Below, in pieces: positions 2,985 through 54,179 of a DNA stretch of 64,000 nucleotides. The notes beneath the pieces are model-generated. The model worked only from the letters and a program-made list of their open reading frames with translations, was not told the DNA's origin and did not search any database. Source of the stretch: Patescibacteria group bacterium (GTDB lineage Bacteria > Patescibacteriota > Patescibacteriia > Patescibacteriales > JBAZCA01); contig JBAZCA010000001.1 of assembly GCA_041671125.1 (NCBI GenBank), positions 136,120 to 200,119 on the forward strand, written 5' to 3'. Made by a program: the position numbers and the translations under genes. The stretch's first letter is position 1. Each line of letters starts with the position of its first letter.

Positions 2985-4358
2985 CTATACCATCCTTTCT
3001 TTACCAAATTTTACTTTTACCAGCCGGCCGGTAAACCCCCTATCGCGATCATCTTCCTTTTCCCGGTTTTTCCTGCCGGTCTTATCTTTAACGATCAACG
3101 ATTTATCAAAAGCAATATCAAAATAATATTCTGATTTGCCAATAAGCTTATCACCCGCCTTTTTCCCGCCAACAATAACGTAGAGTTCGCGGCCGATAAA
3201 TTTCTTTTCGTATTCACGGGAGAGCGCCTCACCGAGCATTTTGAGTTTTTTCACGCGCCTTTGTTTTATTTCATCACTAACAGCTCCGGGCATTTTCGCG
3301 GCCGGAGTTTTTTCATGGGCGGAAAAAGGAAAAACATGCAAACGGCTAAATTTTATTTCTTTAATGAAATTATAAGTGCCCATGAAGTCGGCTTCGGTTT
3401 CGCCGGGAAAACCGACAATAATGTCTGTCGTTATGGCGATATCAGGCATTAATTTCCTGATATTCTTAATTCTTAATTCGTAATTCTTAACCCCATACGG
3501 CCGGTTCATGAGCTTTAAAATTTTATCCGATCCTGATTGCAGAGGAATATGCAAATGCTTGCACATCTTATTATTCCCGCTAAGAAGCCTGATCAACCTG
3601 TCGTTCACTTCGGTAATTTCAATGGAGCTCAGCCTCACCCGCCCTAAATTTTCTATTCTTATAACCTTCCTTAATAAATTAACCAAATTTGATTGATCTT
3701 CCCCTTTTCTAATTTCCGGCTTCTCACTTCTAACTTCCAACTTCTTGCTTCCCGAATCTTTCCCATACAACCCCAAATGGATCCCGCATAAAATGATCTC
3801 GCGAAAACCGTTTTTTACTGCCTCGTTAATTTCCGCGATCACTTCGTCCTTATCGCGGCTTTTTAATTTTCCCCGGGCATAAGGAATAACGCAGTATGAG
3901 CAAAACTGTTCGCACCCGTCCTGGACTTTAATAAAATATCGGGATCGGTCACCGTTTCCCGGACTGCCGGTTTGATGGCATGCTAATAACTCTAAATTTT
4001 GATTTGTAACTTTTAACTCTGAATTTTTAATTTTTAATTTTGAAACAAAGCTTTCCAGCCGCTGTTCATCCGCAACAATTTCTGCATCCCGCAAGCCATC
4101 AATTTCATACACCTTAGGCCAGCAACCGGTCACGATTATGCGCGCTCCGGGGTTTTCCTTCCGCGCCCTATTTATCATTTGCCGGCCTTTTTGGATCGCG
4201 ATTTTTGTTACGGCGCAGGTATTAATAATTACTAGGTCAGCATCATTTTTTACCAGGCTGAAACCGGCCGCCTTAAGCTTTCCGGCCAAAGTCCGCGAAT
4301 CATACTGGTTGACTTTACACCCGAGAGTGTAAATTTTATATTTATTTTCCCGAACCAT
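2985..4358 (-). CDS. mtaB: MtaB-like radical-SAM methylthiotransferase (MiaB/RimO family)
   Basis: YTLGCKVNQYDS N-terminal UPF0004 motif, CxxxCxxC radical-SAM box (CEQFCSYCVIP) and a C-terminal TRAM-like region. Start placed at MVRENKYKIY; the ORF track extends to 4436. Confidence 0.8.
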   Translation of the reverse strand: MVRENKYKIYTLGCKVNQYDSRTLAGKLKAAGFSLVKNDADLVIINTCAVTKIAIQKGRQMINRARKENPGARIIVTGCWPKVYEIDGLRDAEIVADEQRLESFVSKLKIKNSELKVTNQNLELLACHQTGSPGNGDRSRYFIKVQDGCEQFCSYCVIPYARGKLKSRDKDEVIAEINEAVKNGFREIILCGIHLGLYGKDSGSKKLEVRSEKPEIRKGEDQSNLVNLLRKVIRIENLGRVRLSSIEITEVNDRLIRLLSGNNKMCKHLHIPLQSGSDKILKLMNRPYGVKNYELRIKNIRKLMPDIAITTDIIVGFPGETEADFMGTYNFIKEIKFSRLHVFPFSAHEKTPAAKMPGAVSDEIKQRRVKKLKMLGEALSREYEKKFIGRELYVIVGGKKAGDKLIGKSEYYFDIAFDKSLIVKDKTGRKNREKEDDRDRGFTGRLVKVKFGKERMV

Positions 4359-7841: not shown

Positions 7842-7961
7842 ATCAAATCAATTTTTAATTTTTAATTTTTAATTTTTAATGAATCTTCAAATTCACTAAA
7901 AACTATTGCGAGCTGATTATTGTAAATCTTAAATAAAAATAAGCTCTGAAAGCTTCTCTAT

Positions 7962-12722: not shown

Positions 12723-13054
12723 TTGTCATCTCAACCTTAGCGCAACAGAGAGTCATATTTCTTCTGTCATCCTGAGCGTAGCGAAGGATCTGCGGATGCG
12801 TTTCATATATTCACTTTTTATAACGCGCCACCGATTCTTTCTCATACTCTTCAACCTCTTTTTTATTTATCCCGTAATCCTTAAATAACCCCTCGCTTAA
12901 ATCCAGTAAATTTAAAAATGACTGCGGCAAACGACAACCATCTTTATTTAAACCCTTAGATACTTATTTACGTTCGCAGATCCTTCGTCCCGAATATTCG
13001 GGACTCAGGATGACAAAATAAAAAAGGATTTCTCTCTCGCGCTTAGAATGACAG
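12723..13054. repeat. Family C palindromic repeats (tgtcatcctgagcg...ggatgaca), composite copy
   Basis: Left arm tgtcatcctgagcgtagcgaaggatctgcg (12765-12794). Right arm cgcagatccttcg...actcaggatgaca (12974-13014). About 180 bp lies between the arms, with additional half-sites at both ends. Confidence 0.75.
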
Positions 13055-21348: not shown

Positions 21349-21930
21349 CTATCGGTCATAATTATTAACCGCCGCGATAAAGGTGGTAAAATTGAATTTT
21401 AAATCCTGAATTCCCTCTTCCGCGAGATCCAAGTCATATAATTCGGCGCAAACTTTCGGCGCGATAACCGCCGTGGTCTTAGGGATTACTTCGTCGGCTA
21501 AATCTTTGGCAGCCGTCGCCGTATCCGGATACTCGTTTAATTCAGCCTGGGGCCATTTTCTTTTTAAATACATCCGGCATTGGCGGAGCGCCTGCTGGTG
21601 CGAGGTGATGGCGTCAATTTTTTTCAGGTCCGCGCCTTTCTTCATTAAAAGGTTCATCTTAATATCAATTTCAAACATTTTTTCAATCTGGAAAATATGG
21701 CGAGCCATGGCTTCAACCGCTTCTACTACGATTCCGCCATTAGAATTCTCAATCGGAAAAATGCCGATATTTATTTTTCCCTTCCCGAGCGACCGCAAAA
21801 CATTCTCAACCGAAGTGAGATATTCCAACTCGTAATGCTCCAGCTTTTCCTCCCGGGCGTAATGTTTGGCGGCTTCTTCGGTAAAACTTCCCCGGTTTCC
21901 CGAAACGCCAATGATGATTTTAGCGGACAT
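21349..21930 (-). CDS. pheA: Prephenate dehydratase, catalytic domain only (no ACT domain)
   Basis: GVSGNRGSFTEEAA...IFPIENSNGGIV...ITSHQQALRQC are PDT motifs. 193 aa. Confidence 0.85.
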   Translation of the reverse strand: MSAKIIIGVSGNRGSFTEEAAKHYAREEKLEHYELEYLTSVENVLRSLGKGKINIGIFPIENSNGGIVVEAVEAMARHIFQIEKMFEIDIKMNLLMKKGADLKKIDAITSHQQALRQCRMYLKRKWPQAELNEYPDTATAAKDLADEVIPKTTAVIAPKVCAELYDLDLAEEGIQDLKFNFTTFIAAVNNYDR

Positions 21931-22070
21931 AAAATTAAATTTTTAATTCCTAATTTTTAATTTTTAAACAATTTCCAATGAATTAATTTCTAAATTTTTA
22001 AATTGAAAAATTCAAAATTGTTTGAAAATTAAAAATTGAAAATTGAAAATTAATAATGAATCATTAAACA
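21931..22070. repeat. Family E AT-rich long hairpin (aattttcaa/ttgaaaatt units)
   Basis: Arms aatttttaatttttaaacaatttccaatgaattaatttctaaattt and aaattgtttgaaaattaaaaattgaaaattgaaaatt. The same family occurs at 7845, 27016, 45897, 56651 and 57035. Confidence 0.7.
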
Positions 22071-22135
22071 CTCTGCTAATAATACCCGGAATGTTGAATT
22101 CAGTATATCAATTTTCCGTTAATTATCAATCCCCC

Positions 22136-22164
22136 TTGACACCAAATCGGAAAAAATGTATTAT
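22136..22164 (+). promoter_or_regulatory. Sigma70-like promoter of the aro operon leader
   Basis: TTGACA (22136-22141), 17 nt spacer, TATTAT (22159-22164). Confidence 0.55.
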
Positions 22165-22195
22165 TAAAAAAGTGAACAAAAATAATAAATAAAAT

Positions 22196-22279
22196 ATGAA
22201 ATTCGGCCAAATCTGGTTTAGCTACTTTTATTTTTACTTTACCCTTAAAACAAGGCCGGTTTTTTGCATTAATCAATAG
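22196..22279 (+). CDS. Candidate leader peptide, Trp/Phe/Tyr-rich (27 aa)
   Basis: MKFGQIWFSYFYFYFTLKTRPVFCINQ, verified codon by codon. 10 of 27 residues are aromatic, covering all three aromatic amino acids. Confidence 0.6.
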   Translation: MKFGQIWFSYFYFYFTLKTRPVFCINQ

Positions 22280-22299
22280 ATAAATAAAATAAGCAAATA

Positions 22300-22328
22300 G
22301 AACCCGGCCCAAAAGAGCCGGTTTTTTT
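22300..22328 (+). terminator. Attenuator terminator 6 nt upstream of the first aro gene
   Basis: CCGGC (22304-22308), 8 nt, GCCGG (22317-22321), then T7. CCGGCC can alternatively pair with GGCCGG at 22254-22259 inside the leader ORF. Confidence 0.5.
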
Positions 22329-22334
22329 AATTTT

Positions 22335-23126
22335 ATGGCTTCAAAAAAAGAACTCTTATCAAAAATTATCAATCCCGTTTCCGGACGGACGGTTATTGTT
22401 CCCATGGATCACGGCGTTACCGACGGACCGATTTCGGGCCTTGAAAAAATGGATGAAATCATCCGCAAAGTAAAAGAAGGCGGCGCCGACGCTATTATCA
22501 TCCACAAAGGCATTTTTAAATTATGCCGGGAAGCCATCGGCGATCTTCCGGTTCTAATCCATATCTCGGCTTCAACCGGCATGGGCGTTTCTTTAAAAAA
22601 AGTTTTAGTCGCTACAGCCCGCGAAGTTAAAAACCTCGGCGCGGCCGGAGTTTCTGTCCATTTGAATATCGGGAACGAATACGAACCGGAAATGCTCCGC
22701 GATCTCGGCATTATTTCCCGCGAATGCGAAGAGGAAGGATTGCCGCTTTTAGCCATGATGTATCCGCGCGGCATTATTGACGGCCGGATAGTCCATTACA
22801 ACGACCCCGCCCGGGTGGCGCACGCCGCCCGCCTCGCGGCCGAACTCGGAGCCGACATAGTTAAAGTCCCATACACCGGCGACGCGAAAAGTTTCGGCGA
22901 AGTGGTCAAAAGCTGTCCCGTACCGGTCGTTATCGCCGGCGGAGCCAAAGGCTCGGAAGAAGCCATGCTTTCTTCCATCCGGGATTGCGTCCGGGCCGGA
23001 GCGACCGGAGTTTCGGTCGGCCGGAACGTCTTCCAGTCCGAAGACGTCCCGGGTATGGTAAAAAAAGTCCGGGACACTGTCTATAACGCGACCCTTAATT
23101 TGTCATCTATACAGACTGTCCGATAA
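22335..23126 (+). CDS. 2-amino-3,7-dideoxy-D-threo-hept-6-ulosonate (ADH) synthase, class I aldolase family (archaeal AroA')
   Basis: DhnA/FbaB-type aldolase with IVPMDHG and the Schiff-base region ADIVKVPY. The adjacent DHQ synthase II supports the specific call. Confidence 0.8.
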   Translation: MASKKELLSKIINPVSGRTVIVPMDHGVTDGPISGLEKMDEIIRKVKEGGADAIIIHKGIFKLCREAIGDLPVLIHISASTGMGVSLKKVLVATAREVKNLGAAGVSVHLNIGNEYEPEMLRDLGIISRECEEEGLPLLAMMYPRGIIDGRIVHYNDPARVAHAARLAAELGADIVKVPYTGDAKSFGEVVKSCPVPVVIAGGAKGSEEAMLSSIRDCVRAGATGVSVGRNVFQSEDVPGMVKKVRDTVYNATLNLSSIQTVR

Positions 23127-23127
23127 T

Positions 23128-23335
23128 TGTCATTCCGACCCCGCCTTTTGCGGGGGAGGAATCCCTTAAAGGTGAAAGTGGCTAGTTTAAGGGATTTCTC
23201 CCCGCCGATTCGGCGGGTCGAAATGACAAAAAAAGGAGTTGTCGGGTAGCTTGGAGAGATATAATTGAGTTGAACATATTATAAAAAAAATCTCATACGT
23301 AGCGATTAGATCTCTCGCTACGCTCGAGATGACAA
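23128..23335. repeat. Family C palindromic repeats (one full copy plus a half copy)
   Basis: tgtcattccgaccccgccttttgcggggg...ccccgccgattcggcgggtcgaaatgaca, then ...gattagatctctcgctacgctcgagatgacaaaag. The half copy supplies the ATG at 23329. Confidence 0.75.
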
Positions 23336-24351
23336 AAGATATGCAAAAAATATTCTGGTACCAGCCCCCGGTCTGGGATAAAAAATTAGTTACCGCGGCC
23401 ATTGAATCGGGCTTTTCCGCGATCTACGTCCGGCCAGAAGACATCTTAAGGACAAAAGAACTTTCCCTGGCCAAAGTCGTTTCAACCGCCGCGCCGGCTG
23501 ATTTCATCATCGGCGAAAACGTTGACGAAGTGGAAATCAAAAACAAAGAGGCTGAAGAACTGGTCGTCCGGCACCAGGGAAGAATTCCGGTTATTATAAG
23601 GAACCTTGACTGGACAATAATCCCTTTGGAAAATCTTATTTCAAAAACAACAAACTTAATCCAGCATGTCCGCGGTTATGACGAGGCTAAGCTGGCCTTT
23701 GAAACTTTGGAAAGCGGCTGTGACGGGATATTACTGGAAAGCGGCGATTTGAATGAAATAAAAAAAACAGCCACCCTGATTAAAGACGCCCAAAACGAAA
23801 AACTGAAACTCGCCCACGCTGAAATATCTTCAGTAGAACAGCTCGGTCTAGGCGACCGGGTGGTTGTTGATACTTCCTCCATATTATTTCCCGGCCAGGG
23901 CATGCTCGTCGGAGACTCTTCCAAAAGTATGTTTTTAGTATATAATGAAAACGTGGAGACTCCTTACTGCGATCCGCGTCCCTTCCGGGTTAACGCCGGC
24001 GGCGCCCACGCCTACATCCGCCTGCCCGGCGACAAAACTAAATATCTCGGAGAACTAAAAAGCGGCATGAAAGCTTTGGCCGTTGATCCGGCCGGCAACA
24101 CCGAAGAAGCTATCATCGGCCGGATAAAAATAGAAAAGCGGCCAATGCTTATTGTTCGGGCCAAAGTCGGTGAGCGAGACATGAGCCTGGTCATGCAAAA
24201 CGCCGAAACCATCCGGCTTACCGGAACTGACGGACAGCCGATTTCAGTTACAAAATTAAAACCCGGCGACAAGGTGCTGGCTTTCCTGCAGGAAGAAGGG
24301 GTTGGGAGGCATTTCGGCCAGAAAATAAAAGAAACCATAACCGAAAAATAA
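23329..24351 (+). CDS. 3-dehydroquinate synthase II (archaeal type, AroB')
   Basis: About 340 aa. The N-terminus FWYQPPVWDKKLVTAAIESGFSAIYV is typical of the DHQS-II family as I recall it. The true start may be the ATG at 23341. Confidence 0.8.
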   Translation: MTKDMQKIFWYQPPVWDKKLVTAAIESGFSAIYVRPEDILRTKELSLAKVVSTAAPADFIIGENVDEVEIKNKEAEELVVRHQGRIPVIIRNLDWTIIPLENLISKTTNLIQHVRGYDEAKLAFETLESGCDGILLESGDLNEIKKTATLIKDAQNEKLKLAHAEISSVEQLGLGDRVVVDTSSILFPGQGMLVGDSSKSMFLVYNENVETPYCDPRPFRVNAGGAHAYIRLPGDKTKYLGELKSGMKALAVDPAGNTEEAIIGRIKIEKRPMLIVRAKVGERDMSLVMQNAETIRLTGTDGQPISVTKLKPGDKVLAFLQEEGVGRHFGQKIKETITEK

Positions 24352-24446
24352 ATAAATCCATACCAATAATATATCGGACCGTTTACTTGCTAAATAGCGG
24401 CGAAAGTGATACTTTAGGGAAATAATAGCTTTTAATTCCGTAATTT

Positions 24447-25835
24447 ATGATAAAAAACGGAAAGATCATCGTTAATAAATTCGGCGGCGGGATCATGATT
24501 GAAAAACATATCCCCTTTACCGATGAAAGGTTAAGAGAGCAGATTAAAGCCGGCTTCCGACCGGTGGTTGTCGTTTCGGCTTTAAAAGGCGTTACTGACC
24601 GGATCATCCATTTTCTCGCCGGACTAAAACATGAAGTCTGCCGCAACCAGCAGATTGGCGGCAACACCGAAAAATTTTCCATCCGCCTGGTAAGCCCTTT
24701 TGTCGCCGAGTTAAAGGAAGACCATCTAAAGCTCCTTGAGCAAGTCGGAGTATTAAGGGAGGAACGGAAAAAAGCGATGGCTGACATGGATAAAATTTTT
24801 TTCGGGCTGGAAAACGATTTAAACGCCCTCCTCCGTTTTGGATTCTTAAATGTTTTTGATGATAAGATCTCGGCCTACGGCGAAAAGCTAGCCGGGGTTT
24901 TTTTTACCGCCTACCTTAATTCCAAAGGCTTTACCGCCCGGACAATAATGGCTGAAGACATTCCGATAATGACCGATGACTCTTTCCGCGACGCCAATAT
25001 TGATTACAAAGTTTCGGAAAAAAACGCGAGAAAAAAAATCCTGAAATCCGCCGGCATCCCGGTTATCCCGGGCTTTACCGGAAAAACCGCCAACGGCAAC
25101 GTGACTACCCTTGGCCGCGGAGGAACTGATACAACCGCTTGCTTTTTAGGAGCCGCTCTCAGGGCCGACAAAATAATTTTATGGAAAGACGTGGACGGAG
25201 TATTGTCGGCCGACCCAAAAATCGTCCCTTCCGCGAAAACCGTCCCTTTTATAAGCTACGCCGAAGCCGAAGAATCCGGCAAAATAATCCACGACAAAGC
25301 CATCCAGTACGTAAAAATGTTTAAGACTCCGGCCGAAGTGGCGGCCATTTCCGATCCGGCGAAAAAAACCTTAGTCGGCCCGTCCAAAGATAAAAAAGAG
25401 GGTCCGAAGATTGTCAGCTTTAAAAAAGATCTCTCGCTTCTAATCATCACCGACGAAAAAATGAACCAACGCGGCTATCTCGCCCATGTTACCGGGCTAT
25501 TGGCCTCCCGCAAAGTAAACCTGGACACTATAAGAAATACCCGTGATAAACTGCATATTGTCGCTGAAAGCTATAACGGCCCGATTGAAGAGGCGGTTCG
25601 CGACCTAAAGGAAGAAGTGGCAAAATTAAAAATCATTCCGGTAAACATGGTTGTTTTGATTGGTAGCCTGAGCTGGGAGATGGTCAGCCGATTTAACGAT
25701 GTTCTTATAAAGCTCTGCCCCGACGCGGAACTGGGCGCTTTTCCTTACCGGAATTGCGTCCGGCTGGAAGCCGTAGTCCGAGCCGAAGACACGGAAAAAA
25801 TGATCCGGGCTTTGCATGAAGAATTTATTAAATAG
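24447..25835 (+). CDS. Aspartate kinase
   Basis: IVNKFGGG, VVVVSALKGVTD and LGRGGTDTTA amino-acid-kinase motifs, plus a C-terminal ACT-like region. Confidence 0.85.
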   Translation: MIKNGKIIVNKFGGGIMIEKHIPFTDERLREQIKAGFRPVVVVSALKGVTDRIIHFLAGLKHEVCRNQQIGGNTEKFSIRLVSPFVAELKEDHLKLLEQVGVLREERKKAMADMDKIFFGLENDLNALLRFGFLNVFDDKISAYGEKLAGVFFTAYLNSKGFTARTIMAEDIPIMTDDSFRDANIDYKVSEKNARKKILKSAGIPVIPGFTGKTANGNVTTLGRGGTDTTACFLGAALRADKIILWKDVDGVLSADPKIVPSAKTVPFISYAEAEESGKIIHDKAIQYVKMFKTPAEVAAISDPAKKTLVGPSKDKKEGPKIVSFKKDLSLLIITDEKMNQRGYLAHVTGLLASRKVNLDTIRNTRDKLHIVAESYNGPIEEAVRDLKEEVAKLKIIPVNMVVLIGSLSWEMVSRFNDVLIKLCPDAELGAFPYRNCVRLEAVVRAEDTEKMIRALHEEFIK

Positions 25836-25837
25836 CC

Positions 25838-25915
25838 TGTCATCCTGAGCGAAGCGAAGGATCTCGTAAATAGAGTCTTACCACGGGATTCTTCGGCCTT
25901 CGGCCTCAGAATGAC
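25838..25915. repeat. Family C palindromic repeat
   Basis: tgtcatcctgagcgaagcgaaggatctcg...gattcttcggccttcggcctcagaatgac. Very similar to 53989-54066. Confidence 0.8.
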
Positions 25916-25926
25916 CTTTTTAATTT

Positions 25927-27015
25927 ATGAAAAAATTTAGAGTCGGCATCCTCGGCGCGACCGGCATGGTTGGCCAAAACTACATAAGATTGCTTAATAA
26001 CCACCCCTGGTTCAAAGTTACCTACGTCGCGGCTTCGGCCAATTCGGCCGGAGTAACGTATTTTGATTCCATAATCGGCCGCTGGCAGATGGCCACCGCC
26101 GTCCCCAAAGACACAAAGTCTTTAATCGTTGAAAATGTCGCCAACATCAATAAAGCCAGGAAGCATTGTGATTTTGTTTTTTCGGCCTTTGAAATGCCGG
26201 ACAAAAACCTGGTTAAAGAAATGGAGGAAAAATACGCCGCCGCCGGAATCCCGGTCGTCTCAAACGCCTCGGCCAACCGGTTTACCGATGACGTGCCCAT
26301 GCTTATCCCGGAAATAAATCCGCACCATATTGACATCATTCCGATCCAGAAAAAAAAACGTGGCTGGAAAAAAGGTTTTATCGTCGTCAAACCCAATTGC
26401 AGTCTTCAAAGTTATATCACCCCGATTTTTTCCCTTACTAAAGCGGGCTATCCGGTTGAAAAAATATTTATCACCACCCTTCAGGCCGTATCCGGCGCCG
26501 GTTATCCGGGCGTGCCAAGCCTGGATATGATTGGCAATGTCGTGCCATTTATCCCGGGCGAAGAAGAAAAAACCGAGGAAGAACCTTTAAAAATCCTCGG
26601 GGAAATAAAGGACGGAAAATTCCAAAAGGCGGTTTATCCGACAATTTCCGCCCATTGCAACCGGGTGCCGGTGATTGACGGCCATCTCGCCTGCGTCAGC
26701 CTGAAATTCGCCGGGAAAAAACCCAGCCGGGAAAAAATCCTGAAAATCTGGAAAGAATTCAGGGCTCTTCCCCAAACCTTAAAACTGCCGATGGCGCCGG
26801 AACAGCCGATCCTTTACCGTAACGAGCATAACCGCCCCCAGCCGAGAAAAGACCGGGATCGGGAAAAAGGCATGGCCGTTACCGTCGGACGCTTAAGGGA
26901 ATGCAAAATCTTTGACTATAAATTCGCGGCTTTAAGCCATAACACGGTGCGCGGCGCGGCCGGCGGCGGAATATTAAACGCCGAATTGCTTGTGAAGAAA
27001 GGATATATAAAATAA
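25927..27015 (+). CDS. asd: Aspartate-semialdehyde dehydrogenase
   Basis: VGILGATGMVGQ, KPNCS (active-site Cys) and SAHCNRVPV motifs. Confidence 0.9.
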   Translation: MKKFRVGILGATGMVGQNYIRLLNNHPWFKVTYVAASANSAGVTYFDSIIGRWQMATAVPKDTKSLIVENVANINKARKHCDFVFSAFEMPDKNLVKEMEEKYAAAGIPVVSNASANRFTDDVPMLIPEINPHHIDIIPIQKKKRGWKKGFIVVKPNCSLQSYITPIFSLTKAGYPVEKIFITTLQAVSGAGYPGVPSLDMIGNVVPFIPGEEEKTEEEPLKILGEIKDGKFQKAVYPTISAHCNRVPVIDGHLACVSLKFAGKKPSREKILKIWKEFRALPQTLKLPMAPEQPILYRNEHNRPQPRKDRDREKGMAVTVGRLRECKIFDYKFAALSHNTVRGAAGGGILNAELLVKKGYIK

Positions 27016-27120
27016 ATCTTCAATTATCAATGATCAATTTTCAATCAATTTTCAATTAAGCAATTTTAAAATTTAGAAATTAATTCATTTAAAATTGTTT
27101 AAAAATTTAAAATTTTCCGA
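27016..27120. repeat. Family E AT-rich hairpin repeat
   Basis: caattatcaatgatcaattttcaatcaattttcaattaagcaattttaaaatttagaaattaattcatttaaaattgtttaaaaatttaaaatt. Confidence 0.65.
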
Positions 27121-27131
27121 TTTACATTTCA

Positions 27132-28430
27132 ATGTCTTCAAAATCATATAAAATTCTTCCTCTCAAACATCCAATCAGTAAAACCATCACCATGCCCGGT
27201 TCTAAGAGCCTCTCTAACCGCTGCTTAGTAATGGCGGCGTTTTCGCGCGGGCAATCCGTAATCACGGGCGCGTCCGAATCGGACGACTGCCGGATTATGG
27301 TTTCCGCGCTAAAAAAATTGGGAGTTAAAATTAAAAAAAACCGAAACCGGTTGATTGTTTTTGGTAATAACGGCGAATTCCAGCCTTTCAAAGGAAAAAT
27401 AGATGTTGGCGCGGCCGGAACCGCCGCCCGTTTTCTTCTCGCTATCTGCGCTCTGGCGCCCGGAGAAATAATCCTTGACGGGACGTATCGTATGCGGCAA
27501 AGGCCAATCGGCGAACTGGTTAACGCTTTACGAAAACTCGGAGCCGGAATCCAATACCAAAGAAAAGCTAATTGCCTGCCGGTTAAAATCAGGGGTGGAA
27601 ATCTAACCGGCCGGAAAGTCAGCCTGCCCGGAAGAATCTCAAGCCAATTTTTTACTTCCCTTCTCCTGATCGCCCCGGTTTTAAAACAAGGGATTGAAAT
27701 AAGCGTTATTGGCGGACAAATTTCTAAATCTTATATAGACATGACTTTGGACGGTTTAAAAAAACACGGGGTTAGGATAAAAAACCAGGATTATAAAAAA
27801 TACATAGTCCGGCCAGATGCTCGCTACAAACCGGGTCATTACCAAGTTGAAGGCGACGCTTCAGGCGCGAGTTATTTTTTCGCCCTGGCCGCGTTAACCA
27901 AAAACCGGATCCGGATAAAAAATATTCTGCCTGATTCTTCGCAAGGCGACGCTAAATTTCCGGATCTACTAAAACGGATGGGCGCGAAAGTAATAAAAAA
28001 CCAAAAAGAAAACTGGATTGAAGTATCCGGAACCGGCCGCTTAAAAGGCATTTCCGTTAATATGGAAAACATGCCGGATACGGCTCAGACTTTAGCGATA
28101 GTGGCCGCCTTTGCCAAAGACAAAACTAAAATCACCGGGCTTTCCACTCTAAGACATAAAGAAACCGACCGCCTTTCAGCGCTAAAGAATGAACTGAAAA
28201 AAATGGGCGTCAGGTCTGAAATTACCGCTAATTCCATAACGATTCACGGCGGGCGACCGGGCAGCGCGATAATTGATACTTATGGTGATCACCGCATGGC
28301 CATGGCTTTCGCGATCGCTGGCTCGCGGATTCCGGACTTAGCGATTAAAGACCCGGCCGTAGTGTCAAAATCATTTCCGGAATTCTGGTCACTATTAAAA
28401 AGTATTGGTGTTAAAACAACGTCATCCTGA
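27132..28430 (+). CDS. aroA: 3-phosphoshikimate 1-carboxyvinyltransferase (EPSP synthase)
   Basis: PGSKSLSNR, GAAGTAARFL and HRMAMAFAIAG motifs. The last codons ACG TCA TCC TGA lie in the family C repeat. Confidence 0.9.
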   Translation: MSSKSYKILPLKHPISKTITMPGSKSLSNRCLVMAAFSRGQSVITGASESDDCRIMVSALKKLGVKIKKNRNRLIVFGNNGEFQPFKGKIDVGAAGTAARFLLAICALAPGEIILDGTYRMRQRPIGELVNALRKLGAGIQYQRKANCLPVKIRGGNLTGRKVSLPGRISSQFFTSLLLIAPVLKQGIEISVIGGQISKSYIDMTLDGLKKHGVRIKNQDYKKYIVRPDARYKPGHYQVEGDASGASYFFALAALTKNRIRIKNILPDSSQGDAKFPDLLKRMGAKVIKNQKENWIEVSGTGRLKGISVNMENMPDTAQTLAIVAAFAKDKTKITGLSTLRHKETDRLSALKNELKKMGVRSEITANSITIHGGRPGSAIIDTYGDHRMAMAFAIAGSRIPDLAIKDPAVVSKSFPEFWSLLKSIGVKTTSS

Positions 28431-28520
28431 GCGAAGTGGAACGTAGTGAAGGATCTCGTTAAAAACAGTAAGCGTCGCGAAGACGGGATTCTTCCCCCGC
28501 AAATGCGGGGTCAGAATGAC
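28421..28520. repeat. Family C palindromic repeat overlapping the aroA stop
   Basis: gtcatcctgagcgaagtggaacgtagtgaaggatctcg...gggattcttcccccgcaaatgcggggtcagaatgac. Confidence 0.8.
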
Positions 28521-28533
28521 GAAAAGAGAATAT

Positions 28534-29856
28534 ATGAATATAATCCTTATCGGTTTCATGGGTTCGGGAAAAACTACGCTAGCCAAAATACTCACAGACG
28601 CTTTGGGCTGGAAGGCAATTGAAATGGATGATTTGATTTTAAAAAAAAGCGGTCGAAGGACCATTGGTGAAATTTTTGAAAAAAACGGCGAATCGGTCTT
28701 TCGAAAATTGGAAGCGCAAATCGCCAGAGAATTATCCAATACTAATAATAAAATCATCTCTACCGGCGGGGGCGTTATCATGAACGCTAAAAATATCGCT
28801 AACCTGAAAAAAACCGGAAAAATTGTTTATTTAAAAGACAGCTTTGAAAATATCCGGGAAAGATTAAAAAAAGATAAAACCCGGCCGCTCTTTCAGGATT
28901 TAAAGAAAGCAAGAAAACTGTTTAAGCTTCGCCAGTCCTTATACGAGAAATACGCCGATGAAATTATTAATTGCGCGGCTAACCCGGACTTAAACCGCGT
29001 CAGCCGGGAAATTACTAAACGGCTGGAAAAAGACTTAAAAAAAATCTGCCTGATTATCGGCGATCCCGTAGCCCACAGCCTCTCGCCCGCCATGCATAAC
29101 GCCGGCTATCGGGCTTTAAAAATTGATAACCAATTTATTTTTCTTTCAGCCAAAGTTAAGCCGCGGGAATTAAAAAACAGCGTCCGGGCGGCGAGAACTT
29201 TAGGAATCCGCGGACTTACCTCTACCATGCCGCACAAACAAGCGATAATGAAATACCTTGACCGGATTGACCCAATCGCGAAAAAAATCGGCGCGGTTAA
29301 TACGGTGGTTAATGAGAGCGGCCGACTGACCGGCTATAATACTGACTGGCTGGGCGCCGTAATCCCTTTGGAAAATTCTGCCGGTAAAAATGGCTTAAAA
29401 AATAAAAGAGTGGCTCTACTCGGTTCGGGCGGCGCGGCCCGGGCGATTGCCTACGGGTTAGCGAAAAAAGGCGCCCGCTTAAAAATCTTTGACCGCGACA
29501 TTAATAACGCGCGAAAACTGGCTAAGGAATTCGGGGCAGAATCCGGCGGTTATTCGCAAATCCATGAAGTTAAAAGCTCTGACATCATTATCAACGCCAC
29601 GCCGATCGGCATGAAACCGCGTGAAAATGAATCACTGGTACCAGCGGAATTTTTACGTAAAGACCAGGTTGTTTTTGACGCCGTCTATTTTCCCCGAAAA
29701 ACCAAACTTTTAAAACAGGCGGAAAAAAAAGGCGCGAAAATTATTCCCGGCTTGGAAATGCTTTTATATCAGGGAGCGGCCCAGTTTGAATTATATACCG
29801 GCAGAAAAGCGCCGGTTGAAGCAATGAGAAAAGCCTTGAAAAGATGCGAGCATTGA
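28534..29856 (+). CDS. aroK-aroE: Shikimate kinase / shikimate 5-dehydrogenase fusion
   Basis: N-terminus has GFMGSGKTT and STGGGVI (shikimate kinase). C-terminus has GDPVAHSLSPAMHN, MPHK, NTDW and GSGGAARA (shikimate dehydrogenase). Start placed at MNIILIGF. The stop lies in family B repeat copy 3. Confidence 0.85.
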   Translation: MNIILIGFMGSGKTTLAKILTDALGWKAIEMDDLILKKSGRRTIGEIFEKNGESVFRKLEAQIARELSNTNNKIISTGGGVIMNAKNIANLKKTGKIVYLKDSFENIRERLKKDKTRPLFQDLKKARKLFKLRQSLYEKYADEIINCAANPDLNRVSREITKRLEKDLKKICLIIGDPVAHSLSPAMHNAGYRALKIDNQFIFLSAKVKPRELKNSVRAARTLGIRGLTSTMPHKQAIMKYLDRIDPIAKKIGAVNTVVNESGRLTGYNTDWLGAVIPLENSAGKNGLKNKRVALLGSGGAARAIAYGLAKKGARLKIFDRDINNARKLAKEFGAESGGYSQIHEVKSSDIIINATPIGMKPRENESLVPAEFLRKDQVVFDAVYFPRKTKLLKQAEKKGAKIIPGLEMLLYQGAAQFELYTGRKAPVEAMRKALKRCEH

Positions 29857-30038
29857 AAAATTTCGGATAAGACAAACGGACATTTTCCTCTACAAAATTT
29901 TTCTGTCCGAGCGAACCCGCCGAATCGGCGGGGAGCGAGTTAAAAATTTTGTTAGGAAAATAGAGGTTTGACCCGAAATTTTTCACCTGCTCGCGATTTT
30001 TACGCCACTTTTTCTAAAAAAGTGGCAAATAAAATACA
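29853..30038 (+). repeat. Family B structured element, copy 3 (variant inner stem)
   Basis: Same outer arms (gatgcgagcattgaaaaatttcgg / ccgaaatttttcacctgctcgc), same central cccgccgaatcggcgggg and same 3' hairpin. The inner arms differ from the other copies but remain mutually complementary. Confidence 0.8.
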
Positions 30039-30048
30039 TCTTATAAAT

Positions 30049-30717
30049 ATGAACATCCGTATCTGCGCCGTTATTACGGGAAAAAACTTAAAAGAATTTA
30101 TAACTAACCTGAAAAAAGCCCAGAAACAAACTGACTGGGTTGAGCTAAGGGTGGATTATATTCGTGATTTCAAAATTGAAGATATAGCAAAAATCAAAAA
30201 GGGGGTTAAAAAAAATTCCATATTCACCTGCAGAAAACCAAACGAAGGCGGAGAGTTTAAAGGCGCGGAAAAAGAACGGCTGGCCATATTAAACGCCGCG
30301 CTTAAAGAAGGCTTTGATCTAATTGACATTGAGCTCTCCTCTTTTGACAAAGTAAGAATTCCCGCCGGCAATCCGAGGATGATTTGTTCCTATCACGATT
30401 TTAAAAAGACTCCGAGTTTAGAACAGCTTAAAAAAATCGCCGCCAAGATGGAAAAAACCGGAGCGCCGATAATTAAACTTGTAACCATGATTAACGAACT
30501 AGATGACAACCAAAAACTTTTTGAACTTTTGGCCGCTAAGAAAAATGAATCAAAGATGATAGTTTTGGGCATGGGAGAAAAAGGAAAAATCACCCGCCTT
30601 TTATCCCCGCTCTGGGGCGGCTTTATGACTTTCGCGTCAATCGGACAGGCGACAGCGCCGGGGCAAATGACGGTTAAAGAATTGAAGGATGTTTATAAAA
30701 AAATGGGTGCCCGGTAA
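30049..30717 (+). CDS. aroD: 3-dehydroquinate dehydratase, type I
   Basis: MNIRICAVITG...VELRVDY...ICSYHDF...KLVTM (Schiff-base Lys region). The ORF-track start at 29968 lies in the repeat. Confidence 0.85.
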   Translation: MNIRICAVITGKNLKEFITNLKKAQKQTDWVELRVDYIRDFKIEDIAKIKKGVKKNSIFTCRKPNEGGEFKGAEKERLAILNAALKEGFDLIDIELSSFDKVRIPAGNPRMICSYHDFKKTPSLEQLKKIAAKMEKTGAPIIKLVTMINELDDNQKLFELLAAKKNESKMIVLGMGEKGKITRLLSPLWGGFMTFASIGQATAPGQMTVKELKDVYKKMGAR

Positions 30718-30758
30718 GGATAAAAGGCACGCCTCTAATCCTTACCGGGGTTGGGGGT

Positions 30759-30869
30759 TTATTCCTCTTTCTTTTTTCCCTTCACTATTTTATAAATGGC
30801 AACATGCTCATTTATGGCGAAGGCGACAAAAAGAAAGATCATCACCCACTTGACGATTTCAATCAACAA
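30759..30869 (-). CDS. Candidate 36-aa single-TM peptide antisense to the aro operon
   Basis: AGGAGGTG, 6 nt, then a TTG start: (M)LIEIVKWVMIFLFVAFAINEHVAIYKIVKGKKKEE. Followed by the hairpin ccggtaaggat/atccttaccgg (30709-30748). Confidence 0.3.
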   Translation of the reverse strand: MLIEIVKWVMIFLFVAFAINEHVAIYKIVKGKKKEE

Positions 30870-30934
30870 TTTTTTCACCTCCTTTCATAAAGAACAGTTG
30901 TATTAACATAACATAATTATTAATTTTTGTCAAT

Positions 30935-32011
30935 ATGTCAAACACATTTGGAAAATTATTCACTATTACTACTTTCGGCGAATCGCACGGTCCGGCGTTG
31001 GGCGTTATTATTGACGGCTATCCGGCCGGTTTAAAAATTACCGAGGCGGACATCCAGAAAGAACTAGACCGGAGAAAACCCGGGCAAAGCGCGATTACGA
31101 CGTCACGCGAAGAGGATGATAAAATCCGGATTATGTCCGGCATTACCGAAGGAAAAACCACCGGCGCGCCAATTATGCTGATCGTGGAAAACCGCGACGC
31201 CCGTTCAAAGGATTATGGCAGTCTTAAAGAGGTTTACCGGCCCGGACACGCGGATTTTACTTATGAAGTTAAATACGGGCATAGAGAATGGCGCGGCGGC
31301 GGACGAGCGTCGGCGAGAACTACCTTAGCCCAGGTGGCGGCCGGCGCAATCGCTAAAAAATATTTAAAGGAAAAACTCGGCGTTGAAATCCTCGGCTTTG
31401 TTGACCAGGTAGGCGATATTAAGGCCGATATTGAATGCGCTAAAGTGAGTTTAAAAAAAGTTGAAGCCAATCCTATCCGCTGTCCTGACGAAAAAACCGC
31501 GAAAGAAATGATTAAACTTATTATTGCCGCGAAAGCCGATGGCGATTCAGTCGGCGGCGCGGTGGCGGCCGTTATCAGGAATGTTCCGGCCGGCCTTGGC
31601 AGTCCGGTTTTTGATAAACTACCGGCTGATTTAGCTAAGGCCATGATGGGAATTAACGCGGCCAAAGGCTTTGAAATCGGCTCGGGATTCGGGGCGGCGA
31701 AAATGCGCGGGAGCGAACATAATGATTCTTTTTACAGCGCCAACGGCCAGGTTAAAACCAAAACCAACTTTGCCGGCGGAACGCTGGGCGGAATTTCTAC
31801 CGGCGAAGATATTTATTTCCGCGTCGCTTTTAAGCCGACTTCCACTATCTCAAAAGCTCAGGATACGATTGACCGCCGCGGCAAAAAGGTCATTTTAAAA
31901 GCCGCCGGACGCCACGACCCCTGCATCGTCCCCCGCGCCGTCCCAATAGTAGAAGCCATGGCGGCGTTGGTGGTTATGGATCATTATCTAAGGTGGAAGG
32001 CGTATAAATAG
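30935..32011 (+). CDS. aroC: Chorismate synthase
   Basis: FGESHGPALGVIIDG, RPGHAD, GGGRASARTT and GRHDPC motifs. Confidence 0.95.
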   Translation: MSNTFGKLFTITTFGESHGPALGVIIDGYPAGLKITEADIQKELDRRKPGQSAITTSREEDDKIRIMSGITEGKTTGAPIMLIVENRDARSKDYGSLKEVYRPGHADFTYEVKYGHREWRGGGRASARTTLAQVAAGAIAKKYLKEKLGVEILGFVDQVGDIKADIECAKVSLKKVEANPIRCPDEKTAKEMIKLIIAAKADGDSVGGAVAAVIRNVPAGLGSPVFDKLPADLAKAMMGINAAKGFEIGSGFGAAKMRGSEHNDSFYSANGQVKTKTNFAGGTLGGISTGEDIYFRVAFKPTSTISKAQDTIDRRGKKVILKAAGRHDPCIVPRAVPIVEAMAALVVMDHYLRWKAYK

Positions 32012-32020
32012 TGAACCGCG

Positions 32021-32050
32021 CTTGACACCAATTCCCCTTTTTGCTATAAA
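32021..32050 (+). promoter_or_regulatory. Sigma70-like promoter of the trp T-box leader
   Basis: TTGACA (32021-32026), 18 nt spacer, TATAAA (32045-32050). Confidence 0.55.
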
Positions 32051-32059
32051 TAAAATAGA

Positions 32060-32330
32060 TCATTTACAGAAATAAAGTCTAGCCGGATCCCTTGGAATTC
32101 CCGAGGGACTGGGTCCGGTAGTCATGCCTGATACAGTATAGGCATGAAAGGCGGCTTTTGCGTTAGTGAAAGCCCGGCTTCCTCCGTAACCACAGGATAA
32201 CCAGTTTCCAGGCATGGAGCTGGTGAAAGCGATCCGCTTCTTCGGCGGGTAAAAAAGGTGGCACCGCGGGATAACCTCTCGTCCTTTTATCTAAATTTTA
32301 TGTTTGGATAAAAAGATGAGAGGTTTTTTT
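32060..32330 (+). promoter_or_regulatory. T-box riboswitch leader (predicted tRNA-Trp responsive)
   Basis: aaaaaaGGTGGCACCGCGGGataaCCTCTCGTCC (32251-32284) matches the conserved T-box sequence. Terminator: cctctcgtcc...gatgagagg followed by T7, ending at 32330. Candidate UGG specifier at 32093-32095 (UGGA) or 32110-32112. Confidence 0.8.
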
Positions 32331-32630
32331 AATATCTACAAATCAACGAATTTACAACAAATCTACGAATATAGAACTTACGCGTTTATGCGTAAATACC
32401 CCCTTTGTCATTCCGGAAGCCGTTTGGCTATCCGGAATCCAGGATTAGAAGCTTTAACTAAATTTTCAGGATTAAAGGCATTATTACCTTTAAACCCTGG
32501 ATTCCGGCTCTCCGTCTCGATGATTCGGGACTCCGGCCGGAATGACAAAGTGAATTTGTTGGTTAAACGCACAAGTCTTGGAATAAATAAAATTTACATA
32601 TTTGTAAATTCGTCGTTGATTTGTGGGCGC
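32331..32630. repeat. Triple-nested palindromic composite between the T-box and trpE
   Basis: Outer arms caaatcaacgaatttacaa / ttgtaaattcgtcgttgatttg. Middle arms acttacgcgttt / aaacgcacaagt. Inner family C core tgtcattccgg...ccggaatgaca. Confidence 0.75.
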
Positions 32631-45896: not shown

Positions 45897-46050
45897 AGAT
45901 AATTTTCAATTTCAAATTTTCAATTTCTAAACAATTTTCAATGAATTAATTTCTAAATTTTATTCCGAATCACCGGATTAATTAAAAATTTAAAAATTGG
46001 AAATTGTTTGAAAATTAGAAATTGAAAATTGAAAATTTTACTTGTTACTG
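45897..46050. repeat. Family E AT-rich long hairpin
   Basis: Arms ttttcaatttcaaattttcaatttctaaacaattttcaatgaattaatttctaaatttt and aaaaatttaaaaattggaaattgtttgaaaattagaaattgaaaattgaaaat. Confidence 0.7.
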
Positions 46051-46073: not shown

Positions 46074-47936
46074 TCACTTTTTTTTGTCCTCTTTTTTATT
46101 ACATAAAATATTATACGCGCGTTCAAACGCCTCTATGCTCGCCACAATTATATCCGGCGAGGTGGCGGTTGAAATAACTTTGTTTTCAGCCTCGTCTTTT
46201 AAGCCCATAGTCACTTCAACCGACGCGTCAGTTCCTTTGCGGTCAATTTTTACGTCAAAATCAATGAGCCAGTAATTCGGCAGTTTTTCGTTCTTTATGA
46301 CTTCGCGCACGGCTTTCATTATCGCGTCCACCGGACCGACGCCGAAAGATTTTCCCCGGCAAACCCGCTTTCCCGCTACCCGGACGCAAACCTCGGCTTC
46401 GGCCCGGGCGGTTTTTGACGTTGATACGTTGAAATCTTCCACGCTGATGATTTTTTTCGCTCCCGGATCGGTTTTTAAGATGGACTCAATAATATGCTGT
46501 AAGTCCGATTTCCTCATCTTATCTTCTTTTTTAAAAAAATTTTCCACTTCAGCCTGGATGGCGACGAGATATTTTTTATCAAGGCTCACCCCGAATTTAC
46601 CCTTAACGGTTTTTTCCGTCTTCTTTAAAACCGGACATTTGGTAAAAAGCACTTCCACTTTATCTTTTTCCACGGTTGACTGGATATTGTAAAGTTTCAT
46701 TTTAAGGTAATGGTCTACCTCGGAGAGGTTAGGTTCAATTGACGGCGGCGAAGGCAGAATTTTTAACATAGTCACCGGATCCTTAAGCCCGTTGCCGGTC
46801 AAAACGCAAACAACGGTTTCTTCTTTTTTTATTACGCCTTTTAAAGCGAGCATTTTTACGGCCGCGAGCGGCAGGGCGGCTGACGGCTCAACAAAAATTG
46901 ATTCTTCGCTGGCGAGCTCTTTTTCCGCTTTAAGAATTTCCTCGTCCGAGACTTCTAAAGCCATGCCTTTGGATTCTTTTATATCCCTCAAAACTTTCAG
47001 GCCGTCCACCGGGTAACCGACCGCCACGGCCGAAGCGATTGTCCGGGGTTTGGGGATTGGTTTTATTTTCGTGGTTTTTTCGCGGTAAGCCAGGGCAATA
47101 GTGTTGGACCCTTCGGGCTGGACGCCGATTACTTTCGGCAGTTTGTTAATAAAACCAAGCTCGTAAAACTCGCGCATGCCTTTATAGATGGCCGCAATGT
47201 TGGTTCCGCAACCGACCGGCACGATTAAGTAGTCTGGCGCGTTCCAGCCGAGCTGTTCCACTATTTCATAGCCTTGGGATTTCTGACCTTCACCGCGGAA
47301 TACATAGTCTCCGGCCAGATAAAATTTATATTTTTTCGCGATTTCTTCGGCCAGTTTCGCGCACTCCGAATAAGTCGCCCGAACCTGGATTACCCGGGCG
47401 CCGTAAGCGAGGGTCTGCGCCAGCTTTCCGATCGGCGTGCCTTCGGGCACGACGATATAAGCCGGAATTCCGGCTTGAGAGGCGTAGGCCGAAACCGAAG
47501 CGGCCATATTGCCGGTTGAAGCGACGACGACCGCCTTAGCGCCCATTTCCAGGGCTTTGGTTATTTCCACCATAGTCCCCCGGTCCTTAAAGCCGCCAGT
47601 CGGATTAGAAGTCTCATCCTTAAAATACAAATTTTCCAGTCCGAGCCGCTTGGCGATTTTCCGCGATTTCCGAAGCGGCGTCCCGCCTTCGTTTAACGTT
47701 ACCAATTTTTTAAGATCAAGAATCGGGTAAAAATTAAGATACTTGGTCGCGGAAATCGGCGCGTACTTTAAATTAAACTGGTTTAACCGGCATTTGATAA
47801 AATCCCAGTCATATTCGGCTTCCAAAGCGTCGCCGCATTTTAAACAGGACGAAGATGTTTCTTTTTCATCCCAAACCGTCCCGCATTTAACGCATCGCAA
47901 CCGGTAAAACTTAACTGTGCCTTTTGAAGAAACCAT
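46074..47936 (-). CDS. Threonine-synthase-like PLP enzyme fused to a C-terminal LeuA-type allosteric domain
   Basis: N-terminal zinc ribbon (CVKCG...CLKCG). FKDETSNPTGGFKDRG (PLP lysine) and TGNGLKD are ThrC-family motifs. A linker of about 100 aa follows. The C-terminus GVGPVDAIMKAVREV...DASVEVTM...SPDIIVASIEAFERAYN parallels the LeuA C-terminus. Confidence 0.7.
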   Translation of the reverse strand: MVSSKGTVKFYRLRCVKCGTVWDEKETSSSCLKCGDALEAEYDWDFIKCRLNQFNLKYAPISATKYLNFYPILDLKKLVTLNEGGTPLRKSRKIAKRLGLENLYFKDETSNPTGGFKDRGTMVEITKALEMGAKAVVVASTGNMAASVSAYASQAGIPAYIVVPEGTPIGKLAQTLAYGARVIQVRATYSECAKLAEEIAKKYKFYLAGDYVFRGEGQKSQGYEIVEQLGWNAPDYLIVPVGCGTNIAAIYKGMREFYELGFINKLPKVIGVQPEGSNTIALAYREKTTKIKPIPKPRTIASAVAVGYPVDGLKVLRDIKESKGMALEVSDEEILKAEKELASEESIFVEPSAALPLAAVKMLALKGVIKKEETVVCVLTGNGLKDPVTMLKILPSPPSIEPNLSEVDHYLKMKLYNIQSTVEKDKVEVLFTKCPVLKKTEKTVKGKFGVSLDKKYLVAIQAEVENFFKKEDKMRKSDLQHIIESILKTDPGAKKIISVEDFNVSTSKTARAEAEVCVRVAGKRVCRGKSFGVGPVDAIMKAVREVIKNEKLPNYWLIDFDVKIDRKGTDASVEVTMGLKDEAENKVISTATSPDIIVASIEAFERAYNILCNKKEDKKK

Positions 47937-50446: not shown

Positions 50447-50448
50447 TG

Positions 50449-54154: not shown

Positions 54155-54179
54155 TTTCTTTCAATCTTCATCTAGTAAA

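Follow-up and report, generated by a model that had tools for sequence, protein, structure and literature searches.

The 64,000-nt stretch of DNA analyzed here, referred to as the window, covers positions 136,120 to 200,119 of contig JBAZCA010000001.1 from a Patescibacteria group bacterium, and carries an operon for the common aromatic pathway that opens with aroA', the gene for ADH synthase. Between the predicted operon promoter and aroA' lies a leader containing a short open reading frame (sORF) rich in Trp, Phe, and Tyr codons, followed by a hairpin and a run of T. The preliminary description of this DNA had placed the promoter, the sORF, the complementary GGCCGG and CCGGCC segments, and the terminator at positions that all proved exact to the base:

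22136-22141, plus strand: -35 hexamer TTGACA, invariant in an alignment of the window with the related loci L001, L085, and L086
22159-22164, plus strand: -10 hexamer TATTAT, after a 17-nt spacer from the -35 hexamer
22196-22279, plus strand: leader ORF MKFGQIWFSYFYFYFTLKTRPVFCINQ, 27 codons, from the ATG at 22196 to the TAG at 22277-22279
22202-22208, plus strand: candidate segment 1, UUCGGCC, with GGCCGG(A) of segment 2 as a possible partner until segment 3 has been made
22214-22240, plus strand: codon run W-F-S-Y-F-Y-F-Y-F, eight of nine aromatic (one Trp, four Phe, three Tyr), the proposed stall zone
22254-22267, plus strand: segment 2, GGCCGGTTTTTTGC, the 5′ strand of the antiterminator, within the 3′ part of the sORF and including GGCCGG at 22254-22259
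22293-22309, plus strand: segment 3, GCAAATAGAACCCGGCC, partner of segment 2 or, via CCGGC at 22304-22308, of segment 4
22304-22328, plus strand: intrinsic terminator CCGGC-N8-GCCGG plus T7, with the hairpin at 22304-22321, segment 4 (GCCGG) at 22317-22321, and T7 at 22322-22328
22335-23126, plus strand: aroA' (ADH synthase), Pfam DeoC and NCBIfam NF005556 (291.7 bits against a cut-off of 241)

The promoter TTGACA-17-TATTAT matches the sigma-70 consensus at 11 of 12 positions and ranks second in the 19-33 kb interval, and the sequence TGTATTAT at its -10 region is invariant across the four closest loci. Transcription would start near 22171, about 7 nt past TATTAT, which would leave an A-rich 5′ untranslated region of ∼25 nt before the sORF. 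Ten of the 27 codons in MKFGQIWFSYFYFYFTLKTRPVFCINQ are aromatic (one TGG, six TTT/TTC, and three TAT/TAC), and no other short intergenic sORF in the window has at least seven aromatic residues in nine. The CCGGCC at 22304-22309 is complementary to the GGCCGG of segment 2, and T7 is separated from the aroA' start by AATTTT, a 6-nt gap before the ATG at 22335.

The preliminary description had called for the energies of the two alternative structures to be compared. The antiterminator came to -10.9 to -15.2 kcal/mol and the terminator hairpin to -7.9 to -8.0 kcal/mol; the former is also the centroid structure of the unconstrained fold, and 0 of 200 shuffles gave an equally good one. While the GGCCGG:CCGGCC pairing first put forward is present, the actual helix is larger and joins 22254-22267 with 22293-22309. 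Ribosome positions were modeled by partition-function folding with the ribosome footprint masked, a ribosome at the stop codon being represented by masking up to 22289. With the ribosome stalled and its A site on the Trp codon or on the last aromatic codon, the core antiterminator (the first four of the six GGCCGG:CCGGCC pairs) formed with a probability of 0.91-0.97 and the terminator with a probability of ≤0.06. Once the ribosome occupied the stop codon, the terminator formed with a probability of 0.62-1.0 and the antiterminator with a probability of 0. The geometry runs in the same direction: a ribosome with its A site at 22238, the last aromatic codon, extends to ∼22250-51, leaving segment 2 just free from 22254, and one at the TAG at 22277 hides most of segment 2. 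A ribosome at the Trp codon leaves segment 2 free and covers candidate segment 1. Pairing of segments 1 and 2 (CGGCC at 22204-08 with GGCCG at 22254-58) is possible, with a fold of -11.1 kcal/mol for 22171-22270. The switch implied by the layout of ribosome-mediated attenuation in the preliminary description is reproduced in silico by masked folding, and the comparative loci described below support it.

We compared the window with a set of aroA' loci, 84 of which came from one genome and one metagenome scan with ADH synthase and 8 more from protein-identity look-ups. The closest ADH synthases (56-85% identity) are labelled Patescibacteria group, Moran-, Pace-, Roizman-, and Jacksonbacteria; going by these labels of metagenome-assembled genomes only, the window most likely stems from a CPR-type (Candidate Phyla Radiation) bacterium. 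An ATG-started sORF with an aromatic run was found in the 400-500 nt upstream of aroA' at 22 loci, the window included, and these leaders fall into ∼11 sequence-distinct groups. Among the 21 further leader loci are relatives from the Patescibacteria (CPR), with 61-84% identity at the protein level, and GC-rich lineages with Shine-Dalgarno (SD) sequences. Their leader peptides or runs are:

L001, ADH synthase at 84% identity: MKIVQLWFSYFYFYFTLTTRPVFCIS
L085, ADH synthase at 78% identity: MKFGQIWFSYFYFYFNLIKRPAFCRIN
L086, ADH synthase at 76% identity: MKIGQILFSYFYFYFNLNPRPVFCIN
L002: MEKSRQNTSWFFSFYFFTG
L088: MENIRSTSWFFSFYFFTEF
L087: ...NLFFSFFVFYYFFNFTI
L089 (Moranbacteria): MKNLFQIYYFFYFFFNRCSSEIFCIKFN
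L092: MKKICLNYFNYFGFKLQNRRFFCNRS
L091 (Roizmanbacteria): MGIKSKSISFYFYFYPE
L006: ...AYFWYFYWRRPPPVA
L008: MRKFFGYFYWRTGPPAVKCIY
L011: ...GFYFYFWWYFSRV...
L041: ...GFYFYWFFYAG...
L076: ...NFYYFGYFN...
L040, L051, L055, L067, L075, and L079: MQxxWxRYFYFSYYYF..CASTFKR., a GC-rich group with an SD before both the sORF and aroA'

Conservation of the sORF and its aromatic run in relatives had been set as a test that could refute the attenuator, and both were found in L001, L085, and L086 and, as analogous sORFs, in 18 further loci. Upon alignment of the window with its three close orthologues, we found that both promoter hexamers, the sORF, GGCCGG(T/C)TTTTTGC, and AACCCGGCC...GCCGGTTTTTT were kept, with a single T-to-C change in L085 as the one difference within segment 2. 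Divergent were the 5′ untranslated region, the spacer between the stop codon and segment 3, the terminator loop, and the region past the terminator. Within the run, the changes among close relatives were synonymous TAT/TAC and TTT/TTC exchanges, plus one TGG-to-TTG change (W to L) in L086. Apart from that last change, this suggests selection on codon identity and points to translation.

The 18 loci beyond the close orthologues range from 34 to 68% GC, start their genes with or without an SD, and contain the same parts. The nucleotide sequences of the distant loci are unrelated, and their runs read, for example, WFFSFYFF, YYFFYFFF, FYFYFWWYF, or YFYFSYYYF. A hairpin and a T-run follow the sORF in these leaders, and the last part of the sORF, or sequence just past it, is complementary to the 5′ arm of that terminator. 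Automatic terminator finding mis-registered the imperfect stems of L040, L051, and L067, whose terminators (GCCGTGGCGC...GCGACCACGGC-T7) were read by eye. For 21 of the 22 leaders, the antiterminator was matched by at most 1 of 200 shuffles. When sORFs with at least 7 aromatic residues in 9 were counted across 78 aroA' loci, the 30.9 kb upstream of aroA' held 11 in the sense direction and 0 in the antisense direction, and the other 755 kb of the loci, read on both strands, held one. This corresponds to a ∼270-fold enrichment upstream of aroA' in the sense direction.

The leader is present in 18 of 42 loci with an upstream spacer of at least 150 nt, a rough denominator given the crude classification and spurious ORFs in GC-rich loci. 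Leaderless loci mostly have aroA' inside an operon or behind a short upstream spacer. The Syntrophobacterales loci L003 and L004 (48-49% identity) have no leader, aroA' there following another gene or an SD with an ordinary spacer. Nor is there a leader at aroA' of L090 (Pacebacteria), where one would not be expected since the gene is internal to an operon. A weak candidate on a truncated contig, MRFYFYLLF in L028, was left out of the count. In L091, positions 2079-2475 hold two tandem aromatic leaders, MKNLAIKFYFYFTRQCGG and MGIKSKSISFYFYFYPE, each with a CCCCGC...GCGGGG-T terminator and with a repeat-like insert between them. The aromatic run is interrupted midway by a Ser codon (F-S-Y or F-S-F), mostly AGC in TTTAGCT, in 13 leaders that belong to four sequence groups with no other relationship (the window, L001, L002, L040, L051, L055, L067, L075, L079, and L085-L088), which could reflect shared leader ancestry or a functional constraint.

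Taken together, the energies, geometry, and conservation suggest, with a probability that we put at roughly 85%, that this region acts by ribosome-mediated (leader-peptide) attenuation on transcription of the common aromatic pathway operon led by aroA'. Five features by which an attenuator is recognized in silico are present: an sORF between promoter and gene, codons for the end products, a terminator, a mutually exclusive antiterminator, and an architecture conserved across loci. In the proposed mechanism, a ribosome would load on the SD-less, A-rich leader and translate the 27-codon sORF, with translation coupled to transcription. When charged tRNA-Phe and tRNA-Tyr (and tRNA-Trp) are ample, the ribosome would reach the TAG at 22277 and its footprint would lie over segment 2. 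The CCGGC/GCCGG hairpin of segments 3 and 4 would then form ahead of T7, and RNA polymerase would stop at ∼22328, 6 nt before the aroA' ATG. Poor charging of any one of these tRNAs would make the ribosome stall at 22214-22240 with its leading edge at or before ∼22251, and segment 2 would stay free. Upon emergence of segment 3, segment 2 would pair with it in a helix more stable than the terminator, so no terminator would form and the operon would be transcribed.

Several observations weigh against this interpretation. Because the loci share phylogenetic history, they amount to ∼11 independent cases rather than 22. The 176-nt leader region as a whole folds no better than its shuffles (z = -0.15), and significance therefore comes from conservation and architecture and not from folding energy. 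The CGGCC of candidate segment 1 is found in L085 and L086 and is missing in L001, which leaves a conserved 1:2 pause or protector hairpin in doubt; judged by thermodynamics alone, a leader without translation would default to read-through. The terminator stem has just 5 bp (∼-8 kcal/mol). The window has just one Trp codon, L086 has Leu in its place, and the leaders of L076, L089, L091, and L092 lack Trp altogether. Lastly, the review PMC11802643 reports that Tyr supply has no effect on the aroF leader of Corynebacterium glutamicum despite its Tyr codon, which means that codon content alone is no proof of the amino acids sensed.

Two caveats raised in the preliminary description, the missing SD and the short stem, are correct as facts and lose much of their weight in the context of this genome. 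An SD-like motif (GGAG/AGGA-like) lies upstream of ∼8 of the 43 long ORFs in the window, most of which start after an AT-rich stretch, and aroA' itself starts without one, after aattttATG. With SD sequences this scarce genome-wide, an SD-less start on an A-rich leader is typical. Stems of 5-7 bp followed by T-runs are also used by two further leaders in the window:

54180-54269, minus strand: Leu sORF MFKINQKLNIKPFLNLLLLLPLRRVAVFT, with the Leu run LNLLLLLPL, upstream of leuA (52332-53942, minus strand)
48153-48218, minus strand: Ile/Val sORF MIKKLPKNLDIVVVVSLIIPT, with the run DIVVVVSLII, ahead of the ilv operon (46074-47936 and downstream, minus strand)

The Leu leader (54131-54269, minus strand) ends in a terminator with a 7-bp GCCACCU/GGGUGGC stem and the T-rich tail GTTTTAT (-12.9 kcal/mol, z = -4), and GGGTGGCGGTTTTT within its sORF has two possible partners, a GUUGCC upstream of it and the terminator's 5′ arm. 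In the Ile/Val leader (48090-48218, minus strand), the sORF is followed by TGGCAGTTT...AAACTGCCACC-AACATA-GGTGG-T6, which provides an antiterminator, TGGCAGTTT/AAACTGCCA, and a terminator, CCACC-AACATA-GGTGG-T6. By their sequences, we take both elements to be leader-peptide attenuators of the same build as the aromatic leader, and short GC stems with T-runs appear to be this genome's way of building attenuators. Typical terminator strength was judged from these two leaders and not from gene ends, where a strict perfect-stem scan found terminators at 2 of 43. The window also has two unusual domain fusions: the first gene after the Ile/Val leader (46074-47936, minus strand) joins a threonine-synthase-like PALP enzyme to a C-terminal LeuA allosteric (LeuA_dimer) domain, and a leuB (Iso_dh) at 50446-52056 on the plus strand carries an N-terminal DUF559 endonuclease-like domain.

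Downstream of aroA', the rest of the operon continues as follows:

23329-32011, plus strand: remaining aro operon, encoding DHQ synthase II, aspartate kinase, ASA dehydrogenase, EPSP synthase, a shikimate kinase-dehydrogenase fusion, DHQase I, and chorismate synthase

The trpEGDCFBA genes lie downstream of chorismate synthase, and the order aroA'-aroB'-ask(-asd) is kept in L085-L092. On the other side, pheA and tyrA-CM are divergent from the aroA' operon; the upstream gene being divergent, there is no upstream gene on the plus strand that the terminator could serve. The N-terminus of aroA' aligns from residue 1 in relatives, and a public ADH synthase gene call, P0001 (240 aa), starts 23 codons 3′ of this conserved N-terminus. 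An aromatic-run sORF followed by a terminator marks true operon starts and confirms the aroA' start codon, and the pattern could seed a covariance or peptide model for annotation.

The trp genes appear to have regulatory elements of their own, between chorismate synthase and trpE:

32024-32052, plus strand: trp promoter TTGACA...TATAAA
32136-32289, plus strand: divergent T-box before trpE (RF00230, 48.7 bits, below the gathering threshold of 93, E = 1.3e-9)

The T-box terminator in this region (32024-32330, plus strand) is AACCTCTCGTCC...GATGAGAGGTTTTTTT. Stem I is apparently very short, and a bulge holds a UGG (32110-32112) that may serve as the Trp specifier. An element of ∼280 nt (32340-32620), located between the terminator of the T-box and trpE, is built of nested inverted repeats, CTTTGTCATTCCGG/CCGGAATGACAAAG and CCGGAATCCAGG.../...CCTGGATTCCGG. 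It looks like an insertion of the miniature inverted-repeat transposable element (MITE) type, and the ORF at 19370 is immediately preceded by related sequence.

The arrangement looks like hierarchical control, in which the common pathway would sense Phe and Tyr, probably with Trp, and the Trp branch would sense tRNA-Trp. The preliminary description had proposed three-way sensing of Trp, Phe, and Tyr. Codons for all three are indeed present, but the case for Trp is weaker: Phe and Tyr codons dominate every leader, and Trp, a single codon in the window, is found in 17 of the 22 and missing from 5. This bears on the foremost alternative, in which the attenuator is the same but its effective signal is Phe alone, perhaps with Tyr, the Trp codon being incidental and Trp control falling to the trpE T-box. 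The one TGG of the window stands beside six TTT/TTC and three TAT/TAC codons, Trp has become Leu in L086, the trp genes have a T-box-like leader of their own, and the F-Y-F leader of C. glutamicum aroF is reported to respond to Phe and not to Tyr (review PMC11802643). However, a residue as rare as Trp occurs at least once in 17 of the 22 leaders, which are just 17-35 aa long, and in several of them it lies inside the run (FWYFYW, FYFYFWWYF, FYFYWFFY, and WFFSFYFF). A ribosome stalled on the window's Trp codon, moreover, also frees segment 2 while covering candidate segment 1. We therefore regard a signal confined to Phe, with or without Tyr, as possible though rather unlikely, and retain an attenuator that would read Phe and Tyr, and probably Trp.

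Control could instead be mainly translational, the hairpin at 22304-22321 blocking 30S loading on aroA' unless the antiterminator opens it. Initiation without an SD depends on an unstructured 5′ region, as a matter of general knowledge, and in the window the hairpin lies 13 nt before an SD-less start, with the end of the T-run just 6 nt before the ATG. In relatives, however, the terminator is found 50-150 nt upstream of aroA', which means that its proximity to the start is not conserved, and the SD of the GC-rich relatives is unobstructed. Seven T after a GC hairpin are, in addition, the signature of an intrinsic terminator. Control at this level is thus improbable, and termination of transcription remains the preferred reading of the hairpin.

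It is also conceivable that a genuine switch between terminator and antiterminator responds not to translation but, for example, to an RNA-binding protein, a small-molecule riboswitch, or a tRNA, the sORF being untranslated. The sORF has no SD, its translation is something that we infer, and a T-box is in use elsewhere in the window. Against this, the unrelated sequences have in common an ATG, an in-frame aromatic run, and a stop codon whose placement relative to the antiterminator is fixed, with no shared RNA motif, and the changes within the run are synonymous. GC-rich relatives retain T-rich aromatic codons and place an SD before the sORF. No Rfam family reached its threshold in 21900-22400, and the T-box model had no match there. 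We consider a switch of this kind very improbable, and the evidence continues to favor a translated leader peptide. Least credible of all is that the sORF encodes a functional small hydrophobic peptide or arose by chance in a T-rich spacer with the hairpin insulating divergent promoters: AT-rich spacers easily give TTT/TAT-rich frames, and chance has produced another long aromatic-rich ORF in the window (57368-57520), but the enrichment upstream of aroA' is confined to the sense strand, neither peptide length (17-35 aa) nor sequence outside the run is conserved between groups, a terminator complementary to the 3′ end of the sORF always follows, and nothing upstream on the plus strand needs terminating.

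If a leader-peptide attenuator is accepted for aroA', a broader proposal can be made. We hold at about even odds that an undescribed, widespread family of Trp/Phe/Tyr leaders accompanies the archaeal-type aroA'-aroB' genes across Patescibacteria and other lineages and acts as a multi-input OR gate above the tRNA-Trp T-box. If true, this and the Leu and Ile/Val leaders would provide the first evidence at the sequence level that SD-poor CPR bacteria control their own amino acid biosynthesis by coupled transcription-translation attenuation. Apart from that proposal, the aromatic leaders add a well-supported leader family that Rfam does not cover, one that would read several aromatic amino acids and control the route through ADH synthase and DHQ synthase II into the shikimate pathway. 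Patescibacteria/CPR genomes are usually regarded as lacking amino acid biosynthesis; the window holds complete aro, trp, ilv, and leu gene sets. A Patescibacteria-type genome would thus have Escherichia-style leader peptides and a T-box in front of its biosynthesis operons despite its scarce SD sequences.

The window contains further repeated and mobile-type elements. Palindromic intergenic repeats of the form GTCATYCTGAG...CTCAGRATGAC gave 14 matches against 0.42 expected, at 12766-13052, 20016, 25839-25915, 28421-28520, 44880, 52107-52288, 53989-54066, and 55729; several of them lie in spacers of the aro and leu operons and resemble repetitive extragenic palindromic (REP) sequences or MITEs. 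Tandem 7-nt repeats of AAATT(G/A)A occupy AT-rich intergenic regions (22 matches to AAATTGAAAATT with at most one mismatch, 4.4 expected) at 21952-22051, 45901-46037, 7850-7875, 4022-4040, 56007-56684, and 27047-27114. One such block directly precedes the leader promoter, within the region of divergent promoters between pheA and aroA'. A LOOT RNA (RF03000) at 62870-62997 on the minus strand scored 79.5 bits, above its gathering score of 46.4, and a serine recombinase gene (58148-59827, minus strand) is located near it.

Among the known leader families of Rfam, the aromatic leader has no place. A scan of the whole window at gathering thresholds returned nothing at the leader, and an E-value scan of 21900-22400 gave sub-threshold matches throughout, so that we rejected membership in any of these families. 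The best was Phe_leader (RF01859), whose match spans 22200-22330 over the full length of the model, with 22.8 bits against a gathering threshold of 55 (E = 0.18), followed by Leu_leader (19.2 bits against 50) and Trp_leader_2 (17.5 against 100). Trp_leader (RF00513) had no match at E values up to 10, and T-box (RF00230) had none in the same interval. Our own search of the literature, whose coverage was incomplete, found no work in which ADH synthase or CPR bacteria were connected with a leader peptide, and none on DVU0460 or on aromatic attenuators of Desulfovibrio. Attenuators are not mentioned in Rodionov 2004 (PMC545781), and Korolev 2016 has nothing about aromatic leaders.

The best comparisons for the aromatic leader are systems that share its design. 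The E. coli leaders pheL-pheA and pheM-pheST (RF01859) have, like the window, a short leader ORF with a Phe run, alternative hairpins, and a T-run before the structural gene. The window differs in that its run mixes Trp, Phe, and Tyr, its operon serves the common pathway and not the Phe branch, and its start has no SD. Closer in the gene controlled is aroR of C. glutamicum, an attenuating F-Y-F leader upstream of aroF (DAHP synthase) (Neshat 2014 via PMC11802643; PMC4046766). It, too, is a mixed aromatic leader before the first enzyme of the common pathway. Compared by description only, it has three regulatory codons, no Trp, and a classical DAHP synthase in an actinobacterium, in contrast to the eight-of-nine run with Trp and the ADH synthase of the window. 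The uORFC-13-1 motif, found in Acholeplasma only, is a predicted upstream ORF with at least one Phe residue just upstream of an intrinsic terminator before aroF (PMC8632094). It resembles the window in placing an ORF and a terminator before the first gene of the shikimate pathway, but that gene encodes DAHP synthase, and no tie to aroA' or to a run containing Trp or Tyr has been reported. A putative attenuator ahead of aroA'>aroB'>... in D. vulgaris was listed from the Merino database in 2005 (PMC1173090). Like the window, it is a predicted terminator/antiterminator ahead of an aroA'-led aromatic supraoperon; the listing is an RNA structure prediction only, with no leader peptide or regulatory codons described.

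The proposed mechanism is the same as that of trpL, pheL, hisL, and leuL. Leaders with several inputs are known as well, in E. coli thrL (Thr and Ile) and ilvL (Ile, Val, and Leu), where shortage of any one amino acid derepresses the shared pathway. As in the window, one leader there holds codons for several amino acids; these are other amino acids and other operons, and the Rfam scan detected no sequence relationship. The preliminary description had called a single leader for Trp, Phe, and Tyr not a standard textbook case. This holds in one respect only: the mechanism is textbook and precedents before the first common-pathway gene exist, leaving the tri-aromatic run as a modest twist. Judged from its sequence, then, the aromatic leader represents a new and widespread family of a well-known regulatory kind, distinguished by a tri-aromatic run that precedes the alternative shikimate entry route in a CPR-type genome with few SD sequences.

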